DNA of 64,000 nt from Candidatus Moraniibacteriota bacterium (GCA_049287005.1 JBAQEZ010000003.1:265745-329744), one strand, 5' to 3'. Shown: positions 2,622 to 58,929, counted from the stretch's first letter. A program made the numbers and translations. Notes: generated by a model not told the origin, from the letters alone.

Positions 2622-3884
2622 ATGTCACGAGGCCATTATTATGTCGGTTTGGATATCGGCTCTGCAGAAATTCGGGCAGTGATCGCTCAAGAGATTTCTG
2701 CCGAGGAACCGTTGCGCGTTATCGGCGTCGGCATAGCCCCCTCTTTCGGTATGCGGCGCGGAGTGGTAGTGGATACGGATAGCGTGGCCAAGGCATGTAA
2801 CAGCGCCTTGGAACAAGCCGAACGTATGGCCGGGCACCCGGCGGAGAGTTTGGTGGCGAGCGTCAGCGGAACAGAAATTATCTGCCAGGACGCCTTAGGC
2901 GTGATTGCGGTCGGTCGAGCTGATGGAGAAGTCGTCGAAGATGATGTGGCGCGTGTTCTGGAAGAAGTGCAGGCGCGACTGAGTATGCCGCTCAATCGTG
3001 AGATCATTCATGTCATTCCTAAAGATTATCGTCTGGATGACCAGAAAAATATCAAAAATCCCATCGGTATGCGCGGAGTGCGGCTTGAGATGAACGCGCT
3101 CGTGGTGAGCGGGAGCACGGCACACCTGAAGAATATTTCTCGCAGCCTTGAACAGGCCGGAACGAGCGCGGAGAGTTTCGTGGTAGAGCCGCTGGCTTGT
3201 GCTGAGGCGGTGTTGTCTACCAAACAAAAGGAGCTGGGGACGGTGCTCATCAATATAGGTGGCAGTACCACGACGCTGGCCGTGTTTGAAGATGGAGATT
3301 TGCTGCACCTGGCTGTCTTGCCGGTGGGGAGCGGACACATTACCAACGATATCGCGATCGGACTCCGGACGTCGATCGAAGTGGCGGAAGCGGTCAAACT
3401 GCAATTCGGCAGCGCGATGCCTGAAGACATCAGCAAAAAAGAAGAGATCGATTTGAGCGTTTTTGATTCCCAGGAGGACGTCCTGGTATCACGTCGGCAC
3501 GTCGCAGAGATTATTGAAGCGCGCTTGGAAGAAATCTTTTCTTTCGCAAATGCGGAATTGAAAAATATCGGGCGCGAAGGGCTCTTGCCTGGTGGCGCGG
3601 TCTTGTCCGGCGGAGGAGCCCTCCTTCCTGGCGCGACCGATTTGGCCAAACAAGTGCTGCGGCTGCCCGTTCAAATCGGGTATCCGAAACCGCTTGGTGG
3701 CATCCTCGATCAAGTGGATACTCCGCAGTTTGCGACCGCTGTCGGATTGCTGCTTCTGGCGCAAGCGAACCATTCTCACAAAAGCTCTTTTTCTTCTTCA
3801 AACAAAATGATGAGCGCTCTTCCGGAAAGCGTGTATGATATAATAAGGAAGGTAAAGCGCTGGTCAAAACAATTCCTCCCATAA
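2622..3884 (+). CDS. ftsA: cell division protein FtsA
   Basis: YVGLDIGSAEIRAVIA is the actin-fold phosphate-1 motif, and the protein is FtsA-like along its length. The ATG at 2622 is preferred over the upstream ORF-track start. Confidence 0.9.
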   Translation: MSRGHYYVGLDIGSAEIRAVIAQEISAEEPLRVIGVGIAPSFGMRRGVVVDTDSVAKACNSALEQAERMAGHPAESLVASVSGTEIICQDALGVIAVGRADGEVVEDDVARVLEEVQARLSMPLNREIIHVIPKDYRLDDQKNIKNPIGMRGVRLEMNALVVSGSTAHLKNISRSLEQAGTSAESFVVEPLACAEAVLSTKQKELGTVLINIGGSTTTLAVFEDGDLLHLAVLPVGSGHITNDIAIGLRTSIEVAEAVKLQFGSAMPEDISKKEEIDLSVFDSQEDVLVSRRHVAEIIEARLEEIFSFANAELKNIGREGLLPGGAVLSGGGALLPGATDLAKQVLRLPVQIGYPKPLGGILDQVDTPQFATAVGLLLLAQANHSHKSSFSSSNKMMSALPESVYDIIRKVKRWSKQFLP

Positions 3885-3922
3885 GCGTTATCACAAAAAA
3901 TACATAAACAATAGAAGTTCTT

Positions 3923-3952
3923 CTCGGAAAACAGCGTTTTCCTGAGTTTTTT
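3923..3952 (+). terminator. Rho-independent terminator after ftsA
   Basis: The hairpin CTCGGAAAAC-agcg-GTTTTCCtGAG is followed by TTTTTT. Confidence 0.5.
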
Positions 3953-4098
3953 CGCTACCTTGACACCTTTTCTCGCGTTATGATAGAGTAATGAATCAGA
4001 AACTTTTCTGTCGGAAGGGGTTCCTGGAAAGCGGGAAAGGGAAGGTGTGGCATGGCGACTACTGATTATTTAACCAACTTTTTTTAAAGGGGACACAT

Positions 4099-5352
4099 AT
4101 GGCAGAGATCAAACCCGATATCGAAACGTTTGCGAAAATCAAGGTTGTGGGCGTTGGGGGTTCTGGAGGCAATGGTATTACGCGGATGATCGATGCCAAG
4201 ATTAAGGGCGTAGAATTTGTAGCGATCAATACGGATGCGCAGGCGCTCCATAATTCGAAGGCTCAGGAAAAAATCCATATCGGGAAGAATCTGACCAAAG
4301 GACTGGGTGCCGGTATGAATCCGGAAATCGGACGTCAAGCTGCTGAAGAGAATCGCGACGAAATCCAGGAAGTGCTGAAAGGCGCGGATATGGTATTCGT
4401 CACCTGCGGTTTGGGCGGTGGTACCGGATCCGGCGCGGCTCCGATCGTTGCGGAAACTGCCAAAGAATTGGGAGCGCTGACTGTCGGCGTCGTGACAAAA
4501 CCGTTTGCTTTTGAAGGATCGCAACGCCGTGCGATTGCCGAAGAAGCTCTCGCCAATTTGAAAGACCGTGTCGATACGCTGATTACGATCCCGAACGATA
4601 AACTGCTTTCCATCATTGACCGCAAGACAACACTCGTCAACGCGTTCCGTATCGTCGACGATGTGCTGCGCCAGGGCGTGCAGGGTATTTCCGATCTGAT
4701 TACCAAGCCGGGTATCGTGAATGTCGACTTCGCCGATGTGCGAGCTATTATGGAAGACAGCGGCAGTGCCCTCATGGGTATCGGTATCGCTTCCGGCGAC
4801 AATCGCGCGGTGGAAGCCGCCAAAGCAGCTATCAACAGCCCTCTCTTGGAACTTTCTATCGATGGTGCCAAAGGCGTGCTGTTCAATATTTCTGGTTCCA
4901 GCGATCTGACCATGCTGGAAATCAATGAGGCTGCCAGTATCATTACCGAAAATATCGATCCGAATGCCAAGGTTATTTTCGGGGCGGTGACGGATGATCA
5001 GATCCGCAAGGGCGAGATCCAAATTACGGTGGTTGCGACCGGTTTCGATGTGGCGCGTGTCAATGAACCCACGCTTGGACTGATTACCAATCGTTCCGTA
5101 TCTTCGGCACCCTCTTCTCAATCTCAGCCACGGTATGCGTCTCAGACGGAAGAAGACCGCGCGGAGGATGAAAAAAAAGAGGAACATGAAGATGAAATCC
5201 GTTTCTCCAGCCGGAAAGTCGAACAACCGGTGATGATCATCGAGGAAAAGATTCAGCCACGGAGTATCGCTCCACGCAACGAATCCAAAGAGTTGGTGGA
5301 AGAAGAAGATCTTGAGATTCCCGCGTTCATTCGCCGCAAGATGAAGAAATAA
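4099..5352 (+). CDS. ftsZ: cell division GTPase FtsZ
   Basis: [14 protein letters not shown] is the tubulin signature. There is an acidic C-terminal tail and a conserved C-terminal peptide ([11 protein letters not shown]). Confidence 0.95.
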
Positions 5353-5500
5353 TCGTATCCTTTCTTCGTTCAAGCCACAGAAGAGGCGAAAGGAGCATAG
5401 GCTCCTTTTTCTTTTTTTCATCAGTTTGCTATAGTAGGAGCATCTTGAGCCCCGGCTTTCCCAAAAAGCTCATGAAGCTAAAAGCTAAAAAGCTATTCAT

Positions 5501-5947
5501 ATGCGTTGCCCCTTCTGCAATTTTGAAGACACGAAGGTAGTGGATTCGCGCGATACCCAGGAGGGTCGGGCTATCCGTCGCCGGCGTGAATGCGAGAAAT
5601 GTCAAGCCCGCTTCAGTACGTACGAGGAAGTGGAGATTTTTCATTTGCTGATTGTCAAGAAAGATGGACGCAAGGAAGAGTATGATCGAACCAAAATCGA
5701 ACACGGATTGGAGCGTGCCTTCGTGAAGCGTCCGGCAGCCGAAGAGCGTATCGAGAAAATCATGGGAGAAATAGAATACGCGTTGCATGAAAAGCAGGCG
5801 AGTGAAATTTCCAGCCGGGAAATCGGCACTCTCATCATGCAGAAATTGAAAGAAACCGATGAGGTGGCGTATATCCGTTTTGCGAGCGTCTACAAATCTT
5901 TCGGCAGCGCCAAGAGTTTTCTCAAGGCGTTGGAAACATTGGAGTAA
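5501..5947 (+). CDS. nrdR: transcriptional repressor NrdR
   Basis: MRCPFCNFEDTKVVDSRD...CEKCQARFSTYE is the NrdR zinc ribbon, followed by an ATP-cone. Confidence 0.9.
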   Translation: MRCPFCNFEDTKVVDSRDTQEGRAIRRRRECEKCQARFSTYEEVEIFHLLIVKKDGRKEEYDRTKIEHGLERAFVKRPAAEERIEKIMGEIEYALHEKQASEISSREIGTLIMQKLKETDEVAYIRFASVYKSFGSAKSFLKALETLE

Positions 5948-9743: not shown

Positions 9744-9814
9744 CGGGCTGTAGTATATCGGCAGTACGCGTGCATGGGGTGCACGTAGGCCGGGTTCGAT
9801 TCCCGGCAGCCCGA
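9744..9814 (+). tRNA. tRNA-Pro (anticodon GGG)
   Basis: Folded by hand: a 7-bp acceptor CGGGCTG/CAGCCCG with the bacterial tRNA-Pro-type C1-G72 pair; D stem GTAT/GTAC; anticodon stem CGTGC/GCACG with loop A-T-GGG-G-T (U33, G37); T arm CCGGG-TTCGATT-CCCGG; discriminator A; CCA not encoded. Confidence 0.75.
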
Positions 9815-10225: not shown

Positions 10226-10330
10226 ACTGGTGTTCTTGAGATATTACTGAGAGTAAGGTATCATACGTTCATGCTTTTGGCAATAGTCGCCAAAACGCTC
10301 AGAAGCTAATGAAGCTAAAAGCTCGTTATT

Positions 10331-11190: not shown

Positions 11191-11607
11191 GTGGCCACGA
11201 TCAACCAGCTCATAAAACATCCCCGCACCTCCGCTTCCAAGAAGTCGAAGTCTCCTGCGATGACGTATTCCATCAACAGCGTCAAAAACCGAAACACATT
11301 TCATGACAGTCCGTTCAAGCGCGGTGTCTGTATCAAGGTATCTACCACGACTCCCAAGAAACCGAACTCGGCTCTCCGGAAAATCGCCCGTGTGCGTTTG
11401 ACGAACGGTATGGAAGTTACTGCCTATATCCCGGGCGAAGGGCACAACCTTCAGGAACATTCCATTGTGATGATTCGCGGTGGTCGCGTGAAGGATCTGC
11501 CAGGGGTGCGGTATCACATCGTGCGCGGTATTTTCGATGCCGCCGGAGTGAATCGCAAGCAGAGCCGATCGAAATACGGCGCCAAGAAGGAAAAGAAAAA
11601 AGACTAA
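11191..11607 (+). CDS. rpsL: 30S ribosomal protein S12 (GTG start)
   Basis: ATINQLIK...[10 protein letters not shown]...[17 protein letters not shown]. Confidence 0.95.
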
Positions 11608-11608
11608 T

Positions 11609-11706
11609 TTTAGCTTGTAGCTTCTCTAGCTGCTTAGCTTCTTAGGGAAGAGGTTTGCGTAAGAGAAAGCTAATGAAGCTAAAAAGCTAATAAGCTAATG
11701 AAGCTG
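11609..11706. repeat. 'AAGCTAA'-family intergenic element: an inverted block plus a direct block that can form an imperfect long hairpin
   Basis: TTAGCTTGTAGCTTCtctAGCTgcTTAGCTTCTTAG (11609-11646) faces AAGCTAATGAAGCTAAAAAGCTAATAAGCTAATGAAGCTG (11667-11706). Confidence 0.55.
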
Positions 11707-11713
11707 TTGAGAT

Positions 11714-12181
11714 ATGCCACGAAGAAAACGACAATTTACACGCGAATGGAAACCGGATGCTTTGTATAGCAATCCGCTGGTTGGTCATTTCGTGGGTATG
11801 ATTATGTGGAATGGCAAGAAAAGCGTGGCTGAGAAAATCATCTACGATTCTTTTGATATTATTCACGAGCGTACCAAGAAGGGCGGATTGAATACTTTCG
11901 AACAAGCGATCAAGAACGTCTCGCCGCTTTTGCAATTGAAATCTCGGCGCGTCGGTGGTGCCAACTATCAGGTGCCGGTTCCGGTTTCCGGCGAACGCCG
12001 TCAGGTGCTCGCTATGCGCTGGATCCGTGATGCCTGCCGCAAGCGCAAGGGCAAGGGTATGGCGGAAAAACTGGCCGATGAGCTCTTGGATGCTTCGAAC
12101 AAAATTGGTACGGCCATGAAAAAGCGTGATGAAACACACCGTATGGCTGAAGCCAACAAGGCTTTCGCACATTTTGCCTAG
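11714..12181 (+). CDS. rpsG: 30S ribosomal protein S7
   Basis: MPRRKRQFTREWKPDALYSNPLV... Confidence 0.95.
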   Translation: MPRRKRQFTREWKPDALYSNPLVGHFVGMIMWNGKKSVAEKIIYDSFDIIHERTKKGGLNTFEQAIKNVSPLLQLKSRRVGGANYQVPVPVSGERRQVLAMRWIRDACRKRKGKGMAEKLADELLDASNKIGTAMKKRDETHRMAEANKAFAHFA

Positions 12182-12547: not shown

Positions 12548-12589
12548 AGGCATTATTCATAAATCTAAAATCTTAAATCTAGCATTCTT

Positions 12590-14695
12590 ATGGCCCGAAA
12601 AACCCCGATTGAAAAATATCGTAATATCGGCATCATCGCCCATATCGACGCCGGCAAGACGACGACGACTGAGCGTATTTTGTTCTATACGGGTATCACG
12701 CACAAGATCGGCGAAGTGCATGAGGGAGCGGCTACGATGGACTGGATGGAACAGGAGCAAGAGCGCGGCATTACCATCACTTCCGCTGCGACGACCTGTT
12801 TTTGGAAGGGACATCATATCAATATCATCGATACGCCGGGACACGTGGATTTCACCGTCGAGGTAGAGCGTTCACTGCGCGTACTTGATGGCGGTGTTGT
12901 GGTGTTCGATGGCAAAGAAGGCGTCGAACCACAATCTGAAACCGTGTGGCGTCAAGCCGAGAAATACAACGTGCCTCGCATGTGTTTTATCAACAAAATC
13001 GACAAAGAAGGAGCTGTCTTTGAAGAAGCTCTCGATTCTATTGTGAACCGCCTCACTCCACACGCTGTCGCTATTCAATACCCGATGGGACTTCGCGGTG
13101 ATTTTTTTGGTTTGGTTGATTTGATGACAATGAAGTCCTTTACATTCGAAGGAGAAATGGGAGAAAAAGTAATTGAAGCGGAAATCCCAGCTGAATATCA
13201 GGACAAAGCCAAAGAATGGCGTGAAAAAATGGTAGAGAAAATTTCCGAGACAGACGATGCTTTGACTGAGAAGTATTTAAATGGTGAAGAAATTTCTGTA
13301 ACAGAATTGAAGGCCGCTCTTCGTAGAGCAACTATCAGTGTGAAACTTCACCCAGTCCTTATTGGAACAGCTCTTCGAAATAAGGGTGTGCAGCTTATGC
13401 TCGATGCTGTCGTTGATTATCTCCCATCGCCGATTGATATTCCTCCAGTCGCTTGTATCGATATGAAGACGGACAAAGAGGTGGTACGAGAAACGAGAGA
13501 TGATGAAAAATTCTCGGCGCTGGCTTTCAAGATCGCAACTGATCCGTTCGTCGGACAACTGACATTTTTCCGCGTGTATTCTGGTACCGTGAAAGCCGGA
13601 TCCTATGTGCTCAACTCCAGCAAGAATGAAAAAGAACGTATCGGACGCATTCTCCGTATGCACGCCAATCATCGCGAAGAAATTGAAGAGTTGACAGCGG
13701 GAGATATCGGAGCGCTGGTCGGCATGAAAGCGACTACCACCGGCAATACTCTCTGTGACCTGGATTTTCCAGTGATTCTCGAATCCATCACTTTTCCGGA
13801 ACCGGTTATCGATATTTCTATCGAGCCGAAGACGAAAGTCGATCAAGAGAAGATGGGTGTGGCCTTGAAGAAACTTCTGGAAGAAGATCCGACGTTCCGG
13901 GTGCATACCGACGAAGAAACCGGTCAGACAATCATGTCTGGTATGGGTGAACTCCATCTCGATATTCTTGTCGATCGGATGAAGCGCGAATTCAAGGTAG
14001 AAGTGAATGTCGGTCGTCCGCAGGTAGCCTACCGCGAAACGATTCGTGACAAAGCCGAGTCGGAAGGAAAATATATCCGTCAGTCAGGCGGTCGCGGACA
14101 GTACGGCCATTGTTGGCTGCGTGTCGAACCTCAGGAAGAGCCGGGTATGGGGTATGAGTTTTTGAACGAAGTGAAGGGCGGTGCTATTCCCCAGGAATTC
14201 ATCAAGCCGATCGACAAAGGTGTGCAGGAAGCGATGTTGACCGGCGTGTTGGCAGGCTATCCGATGGTGGATATCAAAGCGACTGTCTATGACGGCTCCT
14301 ATCATGATGTCGACTCGTCCGAAGCGGCTTTCCGTATTGCTGGTTCCATGGCGTTCAAAGAGGCCTGTCGCAAGGCGCGGCCGGTTCTTCTCGAACCGAT
14401 TATGAAAGTAGTTGTTATCACACCGGAGCAGTTTATGGGTGATATCGTAGGGGATATTTCTGCCAAGCGCGGAGTGATCAAAGAAATGAACGCTCGTGGC
14501 GAAGGAACATCCGCAGTGAAAGAAATCCATGCCGAAGTGCCGCTGTCTTCGATGTTCGGCTATGCCACCCAGATGCGTTCCATGTCCCAGGGCCGTGCCA
14601 ACTATTCGATGGAATTTGGTCATTATGCCGAAGTCCCGAACAATGTGGCAACGGAAATTATCGGTTCCCGCACCCCGACAGGGGAGGCGAAGTAG
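12590..14695 (+). CDS. fusA: elongation factor G
   Basis: [19 protein letters not shown] is the G1 motif. It is EF-G over all 701 aa. Confidence 0.97.
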
Positions 14696-35792: not shown

Positions 35793-35978
35793 ATGGCAAA
35801 GACATCTACAGCAGCAAGAGCACTCAAAACCCCGAAATTTTCAACCCGGATTGTGAATCGGTGTTGGAAGTGTGGTCGTAAACGCGGGTACCTGCGCAAA
35901 TATGATGTGTGTCGTATCTGTTTCCGTGAACTCGCCAACAGCGGCCAGATTCCCGGAGTGAAGAAGTCGTCTTGGTAA
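35793..35978 (+). CDS. rpsN: 30S ribosomal protein S14, zinc-binding type Z
   Basis: 61 aa; [23 protein letters not shown] has the four-Cys cluster. Confidence 0.9.
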
Positions 35979-36000
35979 AGCTAAAAGCTAGATAAAGAAT

Positions 36001-36413: not shown

Positions 36414-36512
36414 GAGCTTGTAGGTGGTAGCTTCTTAGCTTGTAGGAGAATATCTTTTCTCACAAAGCTAAAATCTAAGAAGCTACTAGCTACCAGCTAA
36501 TAAGCTAAAATT
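36414..36512. repeat. 'AAGCTAA'-family intergenic element (hairpin-forming) between rpsH and rplF
   Basis: GGTAGCTTCTTAG (36430-36442) pairs with CTAAGAAGCTAC (36476-36487), a 12-bp stem. It shares AGCTTGTAG and TAGCTTCTTAG blocks with 11609-11646. Confidence 0.55.
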
Positions 36513-56573: not shown

Positions 56574-57743
56574 TTGATGTTTATGATAATTGGAATAGAC
56601 GCATCGCGGGCATTTCTCAAGCGCCGGACAGGGATTGAGGAATATGCGTATCAAACCATCAAGCATCTACGCAGTGTCATCTCTGAAACGGACACTGTTG
56701 TTTTATATGTGAGAAAAAAGATTGTTTTTCGGAGTGGACGGATACGATTTATATTTCCAGAAATAGATTTTTCTTTGCCGACGAATTGGGGCCTGAGAGG
56801 AATCTGGGCGCCGCGGTTTTGGACTCAGATCGCACTCTCTGTCGAAATGATATGGAAGCGCCCGGACGTGTTATTCGTTCCGGCTCACACGGTGCCGCTC
56901 GTCCATCCTGCCAAGACGGTCGTGACCATCCATGGTTTGGAGTATGAATTTTGTTCACAGGGCTATACCCTGTGGGAACGCCTGTATATGCGTTTCTCAA
57001 TACGCTATTCGTGCCGTGTAGCATCAACGGTCATCTGCGTTTCAGAAAATACCAAGCGTGACGTGATGTCTCTCTATGGGGTGGCAGAGGAGAAAATACG
57101 CGTGATCTATGAAGGTTTTGATGAAAAATTCAAATTACGAAGTCAGAATTTCGAATCAAATTCAAATGTGCAAATTTCGAAATCAGGCATTGAATCAAAA
57201 TTCAAAATTCAAAATTCAAAATTCCTTCTTTTCATAGGTCGGTTAGAGGAAAGGAAAAATATCGTGCGTATCATCGAGGCTTTTGAAATTTTGGAAGAAA
57301 AATATCGGACTCCTCACCAGTTGGTATTGGTAGGGAAGCCGGGATACGGCTATGAACACATCCGATTCAAAATTCAAAATTCAAAATTCAAAATTTCTAT
57401 CAAAGAGTTGGGGTATGTGACCGAAGAAGAGAAGTGGGAATTATTGAAACATGCCGATGTCTTTCTCTTTCCGACGCTGTATGAGGGTTTCGGTATTCCG
57501 GTGCTGGAAGCGCAGTCGGTCGGCGTACCGGTCGTAGCCTCGGAGACGTCTTCCTTGCCGGAGGTGGGCGGGGAGGGCGCGGTGTATGTGGACCCAAAGA
57601 GTGCGCAAAGTATCGCGGCAGGCATCCAGAGGGTGCTTTCGGACAAGGGGTTGCGAGGTGATATAATAGAAAAAGGGCTGAAGAACGTGGAGCGGTTTAG
57701 CTGGATGCAATGCGCGGACAAAATTGTTCATCTTTTAAAATAG
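56574..57743 (+). CDS. GT4-family glycosyltransferase with two in-frame (AAAATTC)n heptanucleotide repeat insertions
   Basis: The C-terminal GT-B motifs are EGFGIPVLEA and VPVVASETSSLPEV. The repeat tracts at 57195-57225 and 57365-57397 encode KFKIQNSKF-like segments. Confidence 0.75.
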   Translation: MMFMIIGIDASRAFLKRRTGIEEYAYQTIKHLRSVISETDTVVLYVRKKIVFRSGRIRFIFPEIDFSLPTNWGLRGIWAPRFWTQIALSVEMIWKRPDVLFVPAHTVPLVHPAKTVVTIHGLEYEFCSQGYTLWERLYMRFSIRYSCRVASTVICVSENTKRDVMSLYGVAEEKIRVIYEGFDEKFKLRSQNFESNSNVQISKSGIESKFKIQNSKFLLFIGRLEERKNIVRIIEAFEILEEKYRTPHQLVLVGKPGYGYEHIRFKIQNSKFKISIKELGYVTEEEKWELLKHADVFLFPTLYEGFGIPVLEAQSVGVPVVASETSSLPEVGGEGAVYVDPKSAQSIAAGIQRVLSDKGLRGDIIEKGLKNVERFSWMQCADKIVHLLK

Positions 57744-57744
57744 T

Positions 57745-58929
57745 ATGGAAACACGGCAAGATACAATCAACACCGTCAAAGACAAGAAAGTGGCGTTGGT
57801 GCACGATTTTTTGGTGGCTTATGGAGGGGCGGAACGAGTGTTTGAGGCGATGGCGGAAATGTTTCCGGAGGCGCCGATCTATACGCTTTTGTATGACAAA
57901 GAGCGCATGGGCGAACATTTTCAGGGACGCGATATCCGCGTATCGTGGCTGTCGAAGTTGCCGCGGTTTTTGAAAAAGCGCTACCGTTTCTTTCTCCCGT
58001 TCTTTCCGGTCGCGGTGGAATCGTTCGACTTGCGGGATTTCGATCTGGTACTCTCTTCTTCCGGAGCCTGGAGCAAGGGGATCGTGACGCGGCTCAACAC
58101 GAAGCATATTGCCTATCTGCATTCGCCGATGCGCTATGCCTGGGATTATCATGAGCAGTATTTGGGAGAGCTCGGTGCGCATGGGAAGAGAAAGATTTTC
58201 ACACGCATGCTCCTCTCGTATCTCCGCATGTGGGACAGGCAGGCGGCGGAACGGCCGGATGCACTCCTGGTGAATTCCCGATTCACGCAGGCGCGGGTCA
58301 AGAAATACTACCGCCGCGACAGTACTGTGGTCTATCCCGGCGCCCTGGATTTGCTGGAAAAATCGCTGAAGTTTCCATCCCAAGCAGCGGTGGAGCGCGG
58401 ACCCGCCCACATTGCTACGCAAAGTGTTTCGGGCAGGCATTTTCTCGTCGTGTCGCGCCTGACGCGTTCCAAAAAAATCGACCCGGTCATCGAGGCCTTC
58501 AATAAATTAGGCTTTCCCTTGGTGATTGTCGGTGACGGACCGGAACGCGGAGCCCTTGAGCGGATGGCGGAGAAAAATATCACCTTCAGAGGCTTTGTCG
58601 GGGACAGCGAGCTAGTCGGACTGTACCGCGGCGCCAGGGCAGTCATTTTTCCTTCGGAAGAAGATTTCGGCATGGTGGCGGCGGAAGCCCTGTCGTTCGG
58701 TACGCCGGTCGTCGCGTATGAGTATGGCGGTATCCGGGAAATCATCGCAGCGGGGAAAACGGGCGAATTGTTTCATGCCCAGACGCCGGAGATCATCGCC
58801 GAGGGCGTGCGCCGTTTTCTCCAGCATGAGGGGCAATATGATGAAGCTCTGATGAAGCAGTCCGTCGCGCATCTGACGAAAGAAAATTTCCAGAAGCGAA
58901 TGAGAGAATGTATTGAAAAATATCTGTAG
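57745..58929 (+). CDS. GT4-family glycosyltransferase
   Basis: N-terminal VALVHDFLVAYGGAERV and C-terminal EDFGMVAAEALSFGTPVVA are the GT-B/GT4 signatures. Confidence 0.8.
   Translation: METRQDTINTVKDKKVALVHDFLVAYGGAERVFEAMAEMFPEAPIYTLLYDKERMGEHFQGRDIRVSWLSKLPRFLKKRYRFFLPFFPVAVESFDLRDFDLVLSSSGAWSKGIVTRLNTKHIAYLHSPMRYAWDYHEQYLGELGAHGKRKIFTRMLLSYLRMWDRQAAERPDALLVNSRFTQARVKKYYRRDSTVVYPGALDLLEKSLKFPSQAAVERGPAHIATQSVSGRHFLVVSRLTRSKKIDPVIEAFNKLGFPLVIVGDGPERGALERMAEKNITFRGFVGDSELVGLYRGARAVIFPSEEDFGMVAAEALSFGTPVVAYEYGGIREIIAAGKTGELFHAQTPEIIAEGVRRFLQHEGQYDEALMKQSVAHLTKENFQKRMRECIEKYL

Follow-up and report, generated by a model that had tools for sequence, protein, structure and literature searches.

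Two perfect heptanucleotide tracts within a glycosyltransferase gene

We analysed a stretch of 64,000 nucleotides (nt) from a Candidatus Moraniibacteriota bacterium (GCA_049287005.1, JBAQEZ010000003.1:265745-329744), hereafter called the window, in which a glycosyltransferase gene of family GT4 contains two perfect tandem arrays of the heptanucleotide AAAATTC. The gene occupies positions 56583-57743 on the plus strand, and its open reading frame (ORF) of 386 amino acids (aa) is intact, a state that we refer to as ON. The product matched Pfam families PF00534 and PF13439 above their cut-offs (Glycos_transf_1, 121 bits, E = 5e-35; Glyco_transf_4, 56.7 bits, E = 4e-15), with Glyco_transf_4 at the N-terminus and Glycos_transf_1 at the C-terminus, as expected for a GT4 enzyme of the GT-B fold. 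It was 100% identical to a protein listed at NCBI as [quoted passage not shown] (MAG, metagenome-assembled genome), and its best matches among the NCBIfam equivalogs were all far under the cut-offs. An AlphaFold2 model computed with 39 orthologues as input took the two-Rossmann GT-B shape, with a mean predicted local distance difference test score (pLDDT) of 88.9 and a predicted template modelling score (pTM) of 0.85. The EX7E motif (E301...E309) was invariant among the 39 orthologues aligned, and the sequence matches of the protein in the PDB included MshA, PimA and GlgA-type GT4 enzymes. Judged by sequence and predicted structure, the tract-bearing gene is a GT4 glycosyltransferase, as an initial annotation of the window had proposed.

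Tandem Repeats Finder scored both period-7 arrays as 100% matches and placed them within 1-2 nt of where the initial annotation had put them. The first, (AAAATTC)x4.3 at 57195-57224, which we call site 1b, encodes SKFKIQNSKF (residues 205-214), and the first strand of the C-terminal domain (LLFIGRLEERKN) follows at once. The second, (AAAATTC)x4.4 at 57365-57395 (site 2), encodes RFKIQNSKFKI (residues 263-272). Both are on the plus strand and in frame with the ORF, and they give the KFKIQNSKF type of peptide that had been predicted. Immediately ahead of the first tract lies a decayed heptanucleotide tract in the inter-domain linker (site 1a, 57125-57194, plus strand), which aligns with a perfect (AATTTCG)x4.4 in three orthologues (L005, L035 and L047); in this region Tandem Repeats Finder detected degenerate repeats of period 14 and 40 (57130-57206, 70-81% matches), in agreement with the degenerate copies noticed before. 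A further position, site 0 (56715-56762, plus strand; residues 45-60), forms a beta-hairpin in the model (E46-50/E53-57) and has no tract in the window, and tracts occur there in some orthologues.

Both peptides had been regarded initially as insertions into loops between the GT-B domains. This held for the first tract, which together with the preceding degenerate repeats fills the inter-domain linker, where residues 181-200 of the model had a pLDDT of 44-52, and it did not hold for the second. Site 2 covers the end of helix 257-265 (pLDDT >90) and the following turn in the C-terminal Rossmann domain. There was no length variation among orthologues at site 2, and because they all have the same length there, the second tract is, according to model and alignment, helix-encoding and not a loop insertion.

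The 21-mer (AAAATTC)3 occurred only at the two tracts within the 64-kb window, and none of 100 dinucleotide-preserving shuffles contained any match; for the 14-mer with at most one mismatch, 6 matches were found against 0.12 expected. The G+C content was 0.30-0.32 at the tracts and about 0.5-0.6 in the flanking DNA. Both tracts exceed the threshold of at least three units used elsewhere for heptanucleotide simple sequence repeats (SSRs) (PMC2651432). They had no hairpin, cruciform or fold potential (z between -0.3 and 0.1), and an Rfam scan of the window gave no match at the tracts, its sole match being a tRNA at 9744.

A gain or loss of one unit frameshifts the enzyme, as the initial annotation had anticipated. 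When one unit was removed or added in silico, site 1b gave products of 215 or 236 aa and site 2 gave products of 276 or 302 aa, instead of 386 aa, and these shifted products are without all or most of the donor-binding domain. Programmed ribosomal frameshifting was rejected by reasoning, with no tool test: AAAATTC does not fit the X_XXY_YYZ pattern of slippery sites, and the gene is already in frame.

Period-7 tracts at fixed sites in orthologues

For comparison we used 87 orthologues (54-75% identity), whose genes amount to 96 kb. From species-representative genomes we fetched 80 orthologous loci and from metagenomes 6, and the protein alignment covered 39 orthologues (65-75% identity). When perfect tandem tracts of at least 19 nt were counted in the 87 genes, 59 had period 7 and none had periods 2-6 or 8-12. 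All 59 fell at three fixed sites, namely site 0 (4 genes), site 1 (27 genes) and site 2 (21 genes), and at least one tract was present in 35 of the 87 genes. Tracts at site 0 included (AAGTTAC)x4.6 in L006, (AATGGAG)x5.1 in L025 and (AAAAATC)x4.6 in L057, and the site-2 tracts in 21 of the 87 orthologues had units other than AAAATTC. Altogether 38 different units were found among the 59 tracts (composition 45% A, 9% G), the commonest being AAAATTC with 9 tracts. Tract length peaked at 30-33 nt, which corresponds to 4.3-4.7 units, and the usual copy number was 4-5. The recurrent shape of the unit, an A-run followed by a T-run and a C, may arise because the units must be stop-free in three frames.

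The periodicity was also seen by autocorrelation, which at lag 7 reached 0.53 for site 1 and 0.46 for site 2, compared with 0.26-0.31 at other lags from 3 to 12; lag 7 was best in 40 of 47 loci at site 1 and in 38 of 47 at site 2. Over 1.33 Mb of loci, tracts of at least three copies numbered 57 for period 7 and 6, 5, 1 and 0 for periods 5, 6, 8 and 9-15, respectively, and about 48 of the 57 lay in the GT4 gene itself or in the roughly 110 bp that precede it. A genome-wide heptamer phenomenon was rejected, since the tracts in the 1.33 Mb were nearly all in the GT4 gene or its paralogue, with a few in leaders or intergenic DNA. Nor are the sites generators of disordered regions by in-frame tandem repeats of the Borg or PTD type, whose unit would be a multiple of three: the unit here is 7 nt, and no tract of period 3, 6 or 9 was found in the 87 orthologues. 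Merely permissive segments should favour multiples of three, and no such repeat was seen.

The paralogue is a second GT4 gene directly adjacent in the window (57745-58929, plus strand, 394 aa, Pfam match), whose copy there has no tract. Its counterpart in L060 carries (AATTTCC)x3.7 and (CAAAATT)x3.1 at its own linker (11772-11879), and in the paralogues of other loci tracts were found at 8093-8113 of L057, (AAATACT)x3, and in the N-domain at 1734-1764 of L059, (AAATTCA)x4.4. Distant GT4 homologues (29-34% identity), located on metagenome contigs L113 (2017-2046) and L125 (1644-1669), also had perfect heptamers, (AATTTCC)x4.3 at the equivalent linker or (ATGGAGA)x3.7 at the N-domain hairpin. 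The metagenome scan consisted mostly of such distant homologues, which served as outgroup only, and from these sequences the heptamer phenomenon may extend past Moranbacteria. We also observed that the L060 paralogue has the two-tract architecture of the GT4 gene, with an AAAATTC-type unit directly before its FLIVSRL strand.

Chance or faulty assembly has nothing in its favour but the general difficulty of assembling repeats. The absence of any match in the shuffles, the size of the tracts (28-31 nt, far shorter than reads and k-mers) and the recurrence of the architecture in over 90 assemblies, made independently in many projects, render this explanation practically negligible.

The comparison of orthologues thus gave period-7 DNA at the same positions with peptides that differ. 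Equivalent sites read KIQNSKF, KLQATSY, SILNSQF, RIKNQES, KIQDSRF, KYQVSSI or AIRHSPF, and in the 39-orthologue alignment each low-complexity peptide is the three-frame reading of a different 7-nt repeat; the length of site 1 was itself very variable (3-45 residues). This bears on the idea that the peptide is what is selected, a heptad of the KFKIQNS type acting as an amphipathic element (e.g., in membrane or partner contact) with the DNA repeat as a by-product. Site 2, a well-predicted helix of fixed length, would suit such an element, as would the peptide period of seven residues that a 7-nt repeat generates. However, radically different peptides occupy the same site in different species, the stretch is only about 10 residues, and a peptide does not need the frozen synonymous codons described below. 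We consider selection on the peptide very improbable.

Nucleotide-level conservation of the site-1b tract

At site 1b, the window shares its (AAAATTC)x4 tract letter for letter with L005, L010, L035 and L047, and L040 has a nearly identical one. These six species are spread across the orthologue tree, and their proteins share only 57-73% identity. In pairwise comparisons at columns with an identical amino acid, the same codon was used in 42% of cases outside the tract and in 140 of 145 inside it, and codons invariant in all six species amounted to 5/135 outside and 8/10 inside. The synonymous codons frozen across six species indicate that the tract is old and held perfect at synonymous positions, and the "recently expanded" locus of the initial annotation has to be given up for site 1b. 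A view that we had to correct likewise is that of rapid turnover alone: besides tracts that differ between close strains, there are ancient ones with the same nucleotide sequence in different species. Taken together, the exclusivity of period 7 and the invariance of codons show overrepresentation and DNA conservation of the repeats over neutral expectation.

Conservation at the level of nucleotides and not of the peptide would also be compatible with a cis-acting nucleic-acid element, either one bound by a protein or RNA or, for identical 28-bp tracts located where the two domains meet in the adjacent GT4 paralogues, recombination joints that swap acceptor and donor domains. The paralogues of L060, which share a unit at the same linker position, the sharp divergence of L173 and L174 right after site 1, and the reshuffling of site-0 and site-2 segments among strains at least 90% identical agree with it. 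On the other hand, 38 units at the same sites are hard to square with one binding factor, the tracts have neither fold or hairpin potential (z about 0) nor an Rfam match, we saw no hybrid gene of the N(A)-C(B) type, and the natural variants are unit deletions, not rearrangements. A cis-acting element therefore seems quite improbable to us. Deletion between the two tracts, another event envisaged in the initial annotation, was seen in none of the relatives, and it would remove the essential LLFIGRLEERKN strand.

One-unit deletions in related species

When assemblies from other samples were aligned at the DNA level, one-unit deletions that split the gene (OFF) were found in three related species. 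In the species of cluster P0004, whose protein is ~75% identical to that of the window, L082 had (AATTCCA)x4 and an intact gene, whereas L081 and L167, from two other samples, had (AATTCCA)x3, which breaks the gene into parts of 229 (or 215) and 159 aa. One single-nucleotide polymorphism (SNP) was the only further difference in 260 nt. This SNP lies 22 nt away from the tract, and both ON and OFF occurred on each of its alleles, which suggests that the OFF alleles of this species arose by recurrent events.

The closest relative found (80% identity, N-domain) varied at two sites. At site 1a, L174 had (CAGTCAA)x4 and L173 had three units, with a 201-aa product as the result. At site 2, L174 was one (TCAATTC) unit short and the gene was split into 259 and 110 aa; its three units read "...SILNSQFIFKNWDM*", and four would yield the consensus "SILNSQFSIHI.ELGYV". 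In the third species, the gene of L040 was intact with (CAGGAAT)x5 and also bore (AAAATTC)x4 at site 1b as the window does. L175, L176 and L177, from three samples, had (CAGGAAT)x4, were otherwise identical to L040 over 340 nt, and showed a split into 253 and 109 aa. Between strains 94-99% identical, we also found length differences of 21 nt, that is, three units, which keep the frame.

The OFF alleles were present at consensus frequency in several independent samples, and collapse during assembly is unlikely because k-mers (141) and reads far exceed the tract length. The one-unit variants in relatives support, by homology, the reading of slipped-strand mispairing at a contingency locus put forward in the initial annotation: the natural OFF alleles lie at the same positions of the same gene.

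Several other candidates were not accepted. L178 (P0236) is ambiguous, as it is one unit short and a poly-A slip explains it equally well. P0147 (323 aa, 20 contigs), a candidate site-0 OFF allele, was rejected: at the DNA level it equals the ON locus, the difference being confined to the start codon that was called. Tract-mediated truncation was unsupported for P0150, P0217, P0222 and P0224, which were chimeric, lost the frame ahead of the tract, had multiple indels or ended in unrelated sequence. Ten more 90% clusters (26 members) contained no further OFF alleles.

A candidate frameshift switch

The order murA-mreB-GT4-GT4-holB-ftsQ around the gene is kept in relatives, and from this neighbourhood the enzyme probably builds a cell-envelope glycoconjugate. 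With moderate confidence, we interpret the (AAAATTC)4 tracts as slippage-prone frameshift switches of this conserved cell-envelope GT4 gene. The window gene, now in frame, would be in the ON state. Slipped-strand mispairing at replication would remove or add one 7-nt unit, and in the shifted frame translation would stop after 215-302 residues, so that the C-terminal domain, which binds the nucleotide sugar, would be missing or incomplete and the allele null (OFF). Another slip in that tract could restore the frame and return the gene to ON. Repeated slippage would keep the units mutually identical, and selection acting on the repeat DNA rather than on the peptide would keep the tract perfect. 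On this reading, the tracts of the window itself would have a useful slip rate, the change would be reversible, and the OFF state would occasionally be advantageous, for example where a surface glycan is used by phages or partner cells.

Several points weigh against this interpretation. In classical contingency loci the tracts are long and differ greatly in length, and OFF genomes are numerous; here the copy number in the ON state is nearly constant (4-5 units), all 87 reference orthologues gave a single in-frame match and are ON, and every OFF allele seen is a deletion. The narrow range may be due to the reading frame: starting from a single ancestral copy, a repeated tract first returns to the original frame at four copies (1+3). 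Four units are also short, so the switching rate may be low. The sole other assembly of the window organism (L168) was 100% identical over 13.8 kb and, being identical, is uninformative on variation of the repeat number in that organism. Site 1 accepts unrelated in-frame palindromic inserts in L006, L014 and L068, so relaxed constraint contributes. The glycan product and the surface exposure attributed to the enzyme are putative. In addition, phase-variable genes typically place their SSRs near the 5' end (PMC3315296), and the tracts of the window are mid-gene.

Part of this evidence would be expected if the tracts were tolerated slippage debris, an old 7-nt microsatellite that sits in a permissive linker and a surface helix and is homogenised by slippage, the OFF alleles then being plain loss-of-function alleles of incipient pseudogenes. 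The low model confidence of site 1, its length of 3-45 residues and its acceptance of unrelated inserts are consistent with such debris, and so are the lack of OFF alleles among the 87 species representatives, the low copy number and the restriction to deletions. Debris leaves unexplained, however, why the frame-breaking period 7 alone is found and never 3, 6 or 9, why synonymous positions are conserved across species with 57-73% identical proteins, why the paralogue and distant GT4 genes bear tracts at equivalent places in the structure, and how OFF alleles came to be the consensus in several independent samples and with either allele of the SNP. The path from one to four copies must also have passed through out-of-frame states that were viable. 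We therefore regard debris as unlikely, but as an explanation to be taken seriously.

Comparison with known phase-variable loci

In Campylobacter, Neisseria and Helicobacter, homopolymer tracts cause stochastic ON/OFF expression of glycosyltransferases that act on surface glycans. Those systems differ from the frameshift switch proposed here in that the tracts are mononucleotide, the bacteria are host-adapted pathogens and there is usually one tract per gene. The lipopolysaccharide (LPS) glycosyltransferase loci of Haemophilus influenzae (lgtC with GACA, lic2A with CAAT, and lex2A, among others) are similar in having a perfect non-triplet SSR within a glycosyltransferase ORF, in which a change in unit number switches the gene on or off by frameshift, and in that the repeats are conserved as DNA (PMC2651432). 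They differ in that their units are tetranucleotides in 5-50 copies, very length-variable between strains and just past the start codon, whereas the tracts described here have a 7-nt unit in 4-5 copies, occupy two or three fixed structural positions in the middle of the gene, and are conserved across a whole class of environmental bacteria of the Candidate Phyla Radiation (CPR). Compared with the SSR loci of H. influenzae, Neisseria and Campylobacter, the system is also found in an adjacent pair of paralogues.

Heptanucleotide SSRs of at least three units have been accepted as phase-variation tracts in H. influenzae, one of them mid-ORF (PMC2651432). The repeats in the hmw1A and hmw2A promoters and the (AATTTTG)14 tract in hmw1a of strain PittAA share the A/T-rich 7-nt unit, and the PittAA tract is in addition mid-ORF and associated with a frameshift (PMC2651432). 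Unlike the tracts of the GT4 gene, the hmw tracts are strain-specific and have 13-38 copies, and those in the promoters give graded transcription of an adhesin.

Borg tandem repeats are in-frame repeats of uncultivated lineages that encode low-complexity peptides. The sole related CPR report that we found concerns an in-frame 9-nt (9-mer) PTD repeat in a Gracilibacterium (PMC6851277). Both resemble the GT4 tracts as perfect in-gene repeats that give low-complexity peptides in uncultivated lineages, but their unit lengths are divisible by three, so that the frame is always kept, whereas every single-unit change of a 7-nt unit is a frameshift. In the full-text literature searched, no paper was found on SSR phase variation or contingency loci in the CPR or Patescibacteria, and the GT4 gene would be, in that literature, the first candidate for an on/off contingency gene of the CPR.

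When phase-variable genes are conserved across a genus, they are called a phasome. A tentative extension of the switch interpretation, which we hold with less confidence than the switch itself, is that an ancient, class-wide phasome exists in CPR bacteria: heptanucleotide switches at two or three positions of the GT4 gene and in its paralogue would have been kept for the mutability of the DNA through the diversification of Moranbacteria and beyond, giving combinatorial and heritable on/off control of surface glycans. Were this the case, the first contingency locus of the CPR would be an unusually old one, in ultra-small and probably cell-attached hosts, with a use against phages or in partner recognition.

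SSR phase variation is considered a hallmark of host-adapted pathogens with small genomes. If the proposed switch operates, uncultivated ultra-small bacteria of groundwater and soil would also bet-hedge their cell surface, and a hypermutable tract would have been conserved at the nucleotide level over very deep divergence. The number of units (3, 4 or 5) would then be a marker that can be read from metagenomic reads, tracking ON and OFF against phage or host abundance. For annotation, one-unit slips would account for the recurrent "split" or "partial" GT4 genes in Moranbacteria MAGs.

Other observations at the GT4 loci

The palindromic inserts in the site-1 linker are G+C-rich and in frame, and were found at ~10530-10640 in L006, at ~10540-10640 in L014 and in L068. 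Their peptides include CCCGCCTGCCGGACGGGCAGG, which is present twice in L006, and "CHSERSEEPR...IPRQARDD" in L014, and the peptide "PPAGG" recurs in several orthologues. From their sequence, these inserts look like small hairpin repeats similar to miniature inverted-repeat transposable elements (MITEs) that are tolerated in coding sequence.

Mosaic structures were also observed. L173 and L174 are identical upstream and diverge by ~25% at the DNA level from ~3090, starting just after site 1. In clusters P0002, P0051, P0090 and P0020, the segments of sites 0, 1 and 2, together with a few flanking residues, were swapped independently between proteins that are otherwise at least 90% identical. These patterns suggest recombination breakpoints at or near the tracts. 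The two GT4 genes are adjacent in the window and in most loci, and in L174 they are separated by three small ORFs without annotation (3664-4750), which have 106, 74 and 68 aa and are not all on the same strand.

A second heptamer, AAGCTAA, forms clusters in intergenic leaders of the window (5458-5495, 10303-10318, 11605-11706, 35978-35984 and 36428-36510). The clusters lie 5-30 nt ahead of start codons at 5501, 10331, 11714, 36001 and 36513, with copies 7-9 nt apart and partly inverted arms (TTAGCTT...AAGCTAA). There were 15 matches against 6.5 expected, a number that none of 100 shuffles reached, and no Rfam family matched these leaders. AAGCTAA may be a lineage-specific leader or translation signal. 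In L047, (AGCTAAA)x4.9 abuts the start codon of the GT4 gene, and the N-terminal "extensions" with which some orthologues were called, MVKLTANSYKLKARV for example, are the translated AAGCTAA motif. Another repeat of the window, (AAATCTA)x3 at 12561-12581, precedes an ATG at 12590.

Lastly, many species-representative MAGs with a Moranbacteria-type gene and synteny (e.g., L001, L004 and L005) are titled "uncultured Bdellovibrionales bacterium"; they are third-party assemblies, and this looks like a labelling problem.

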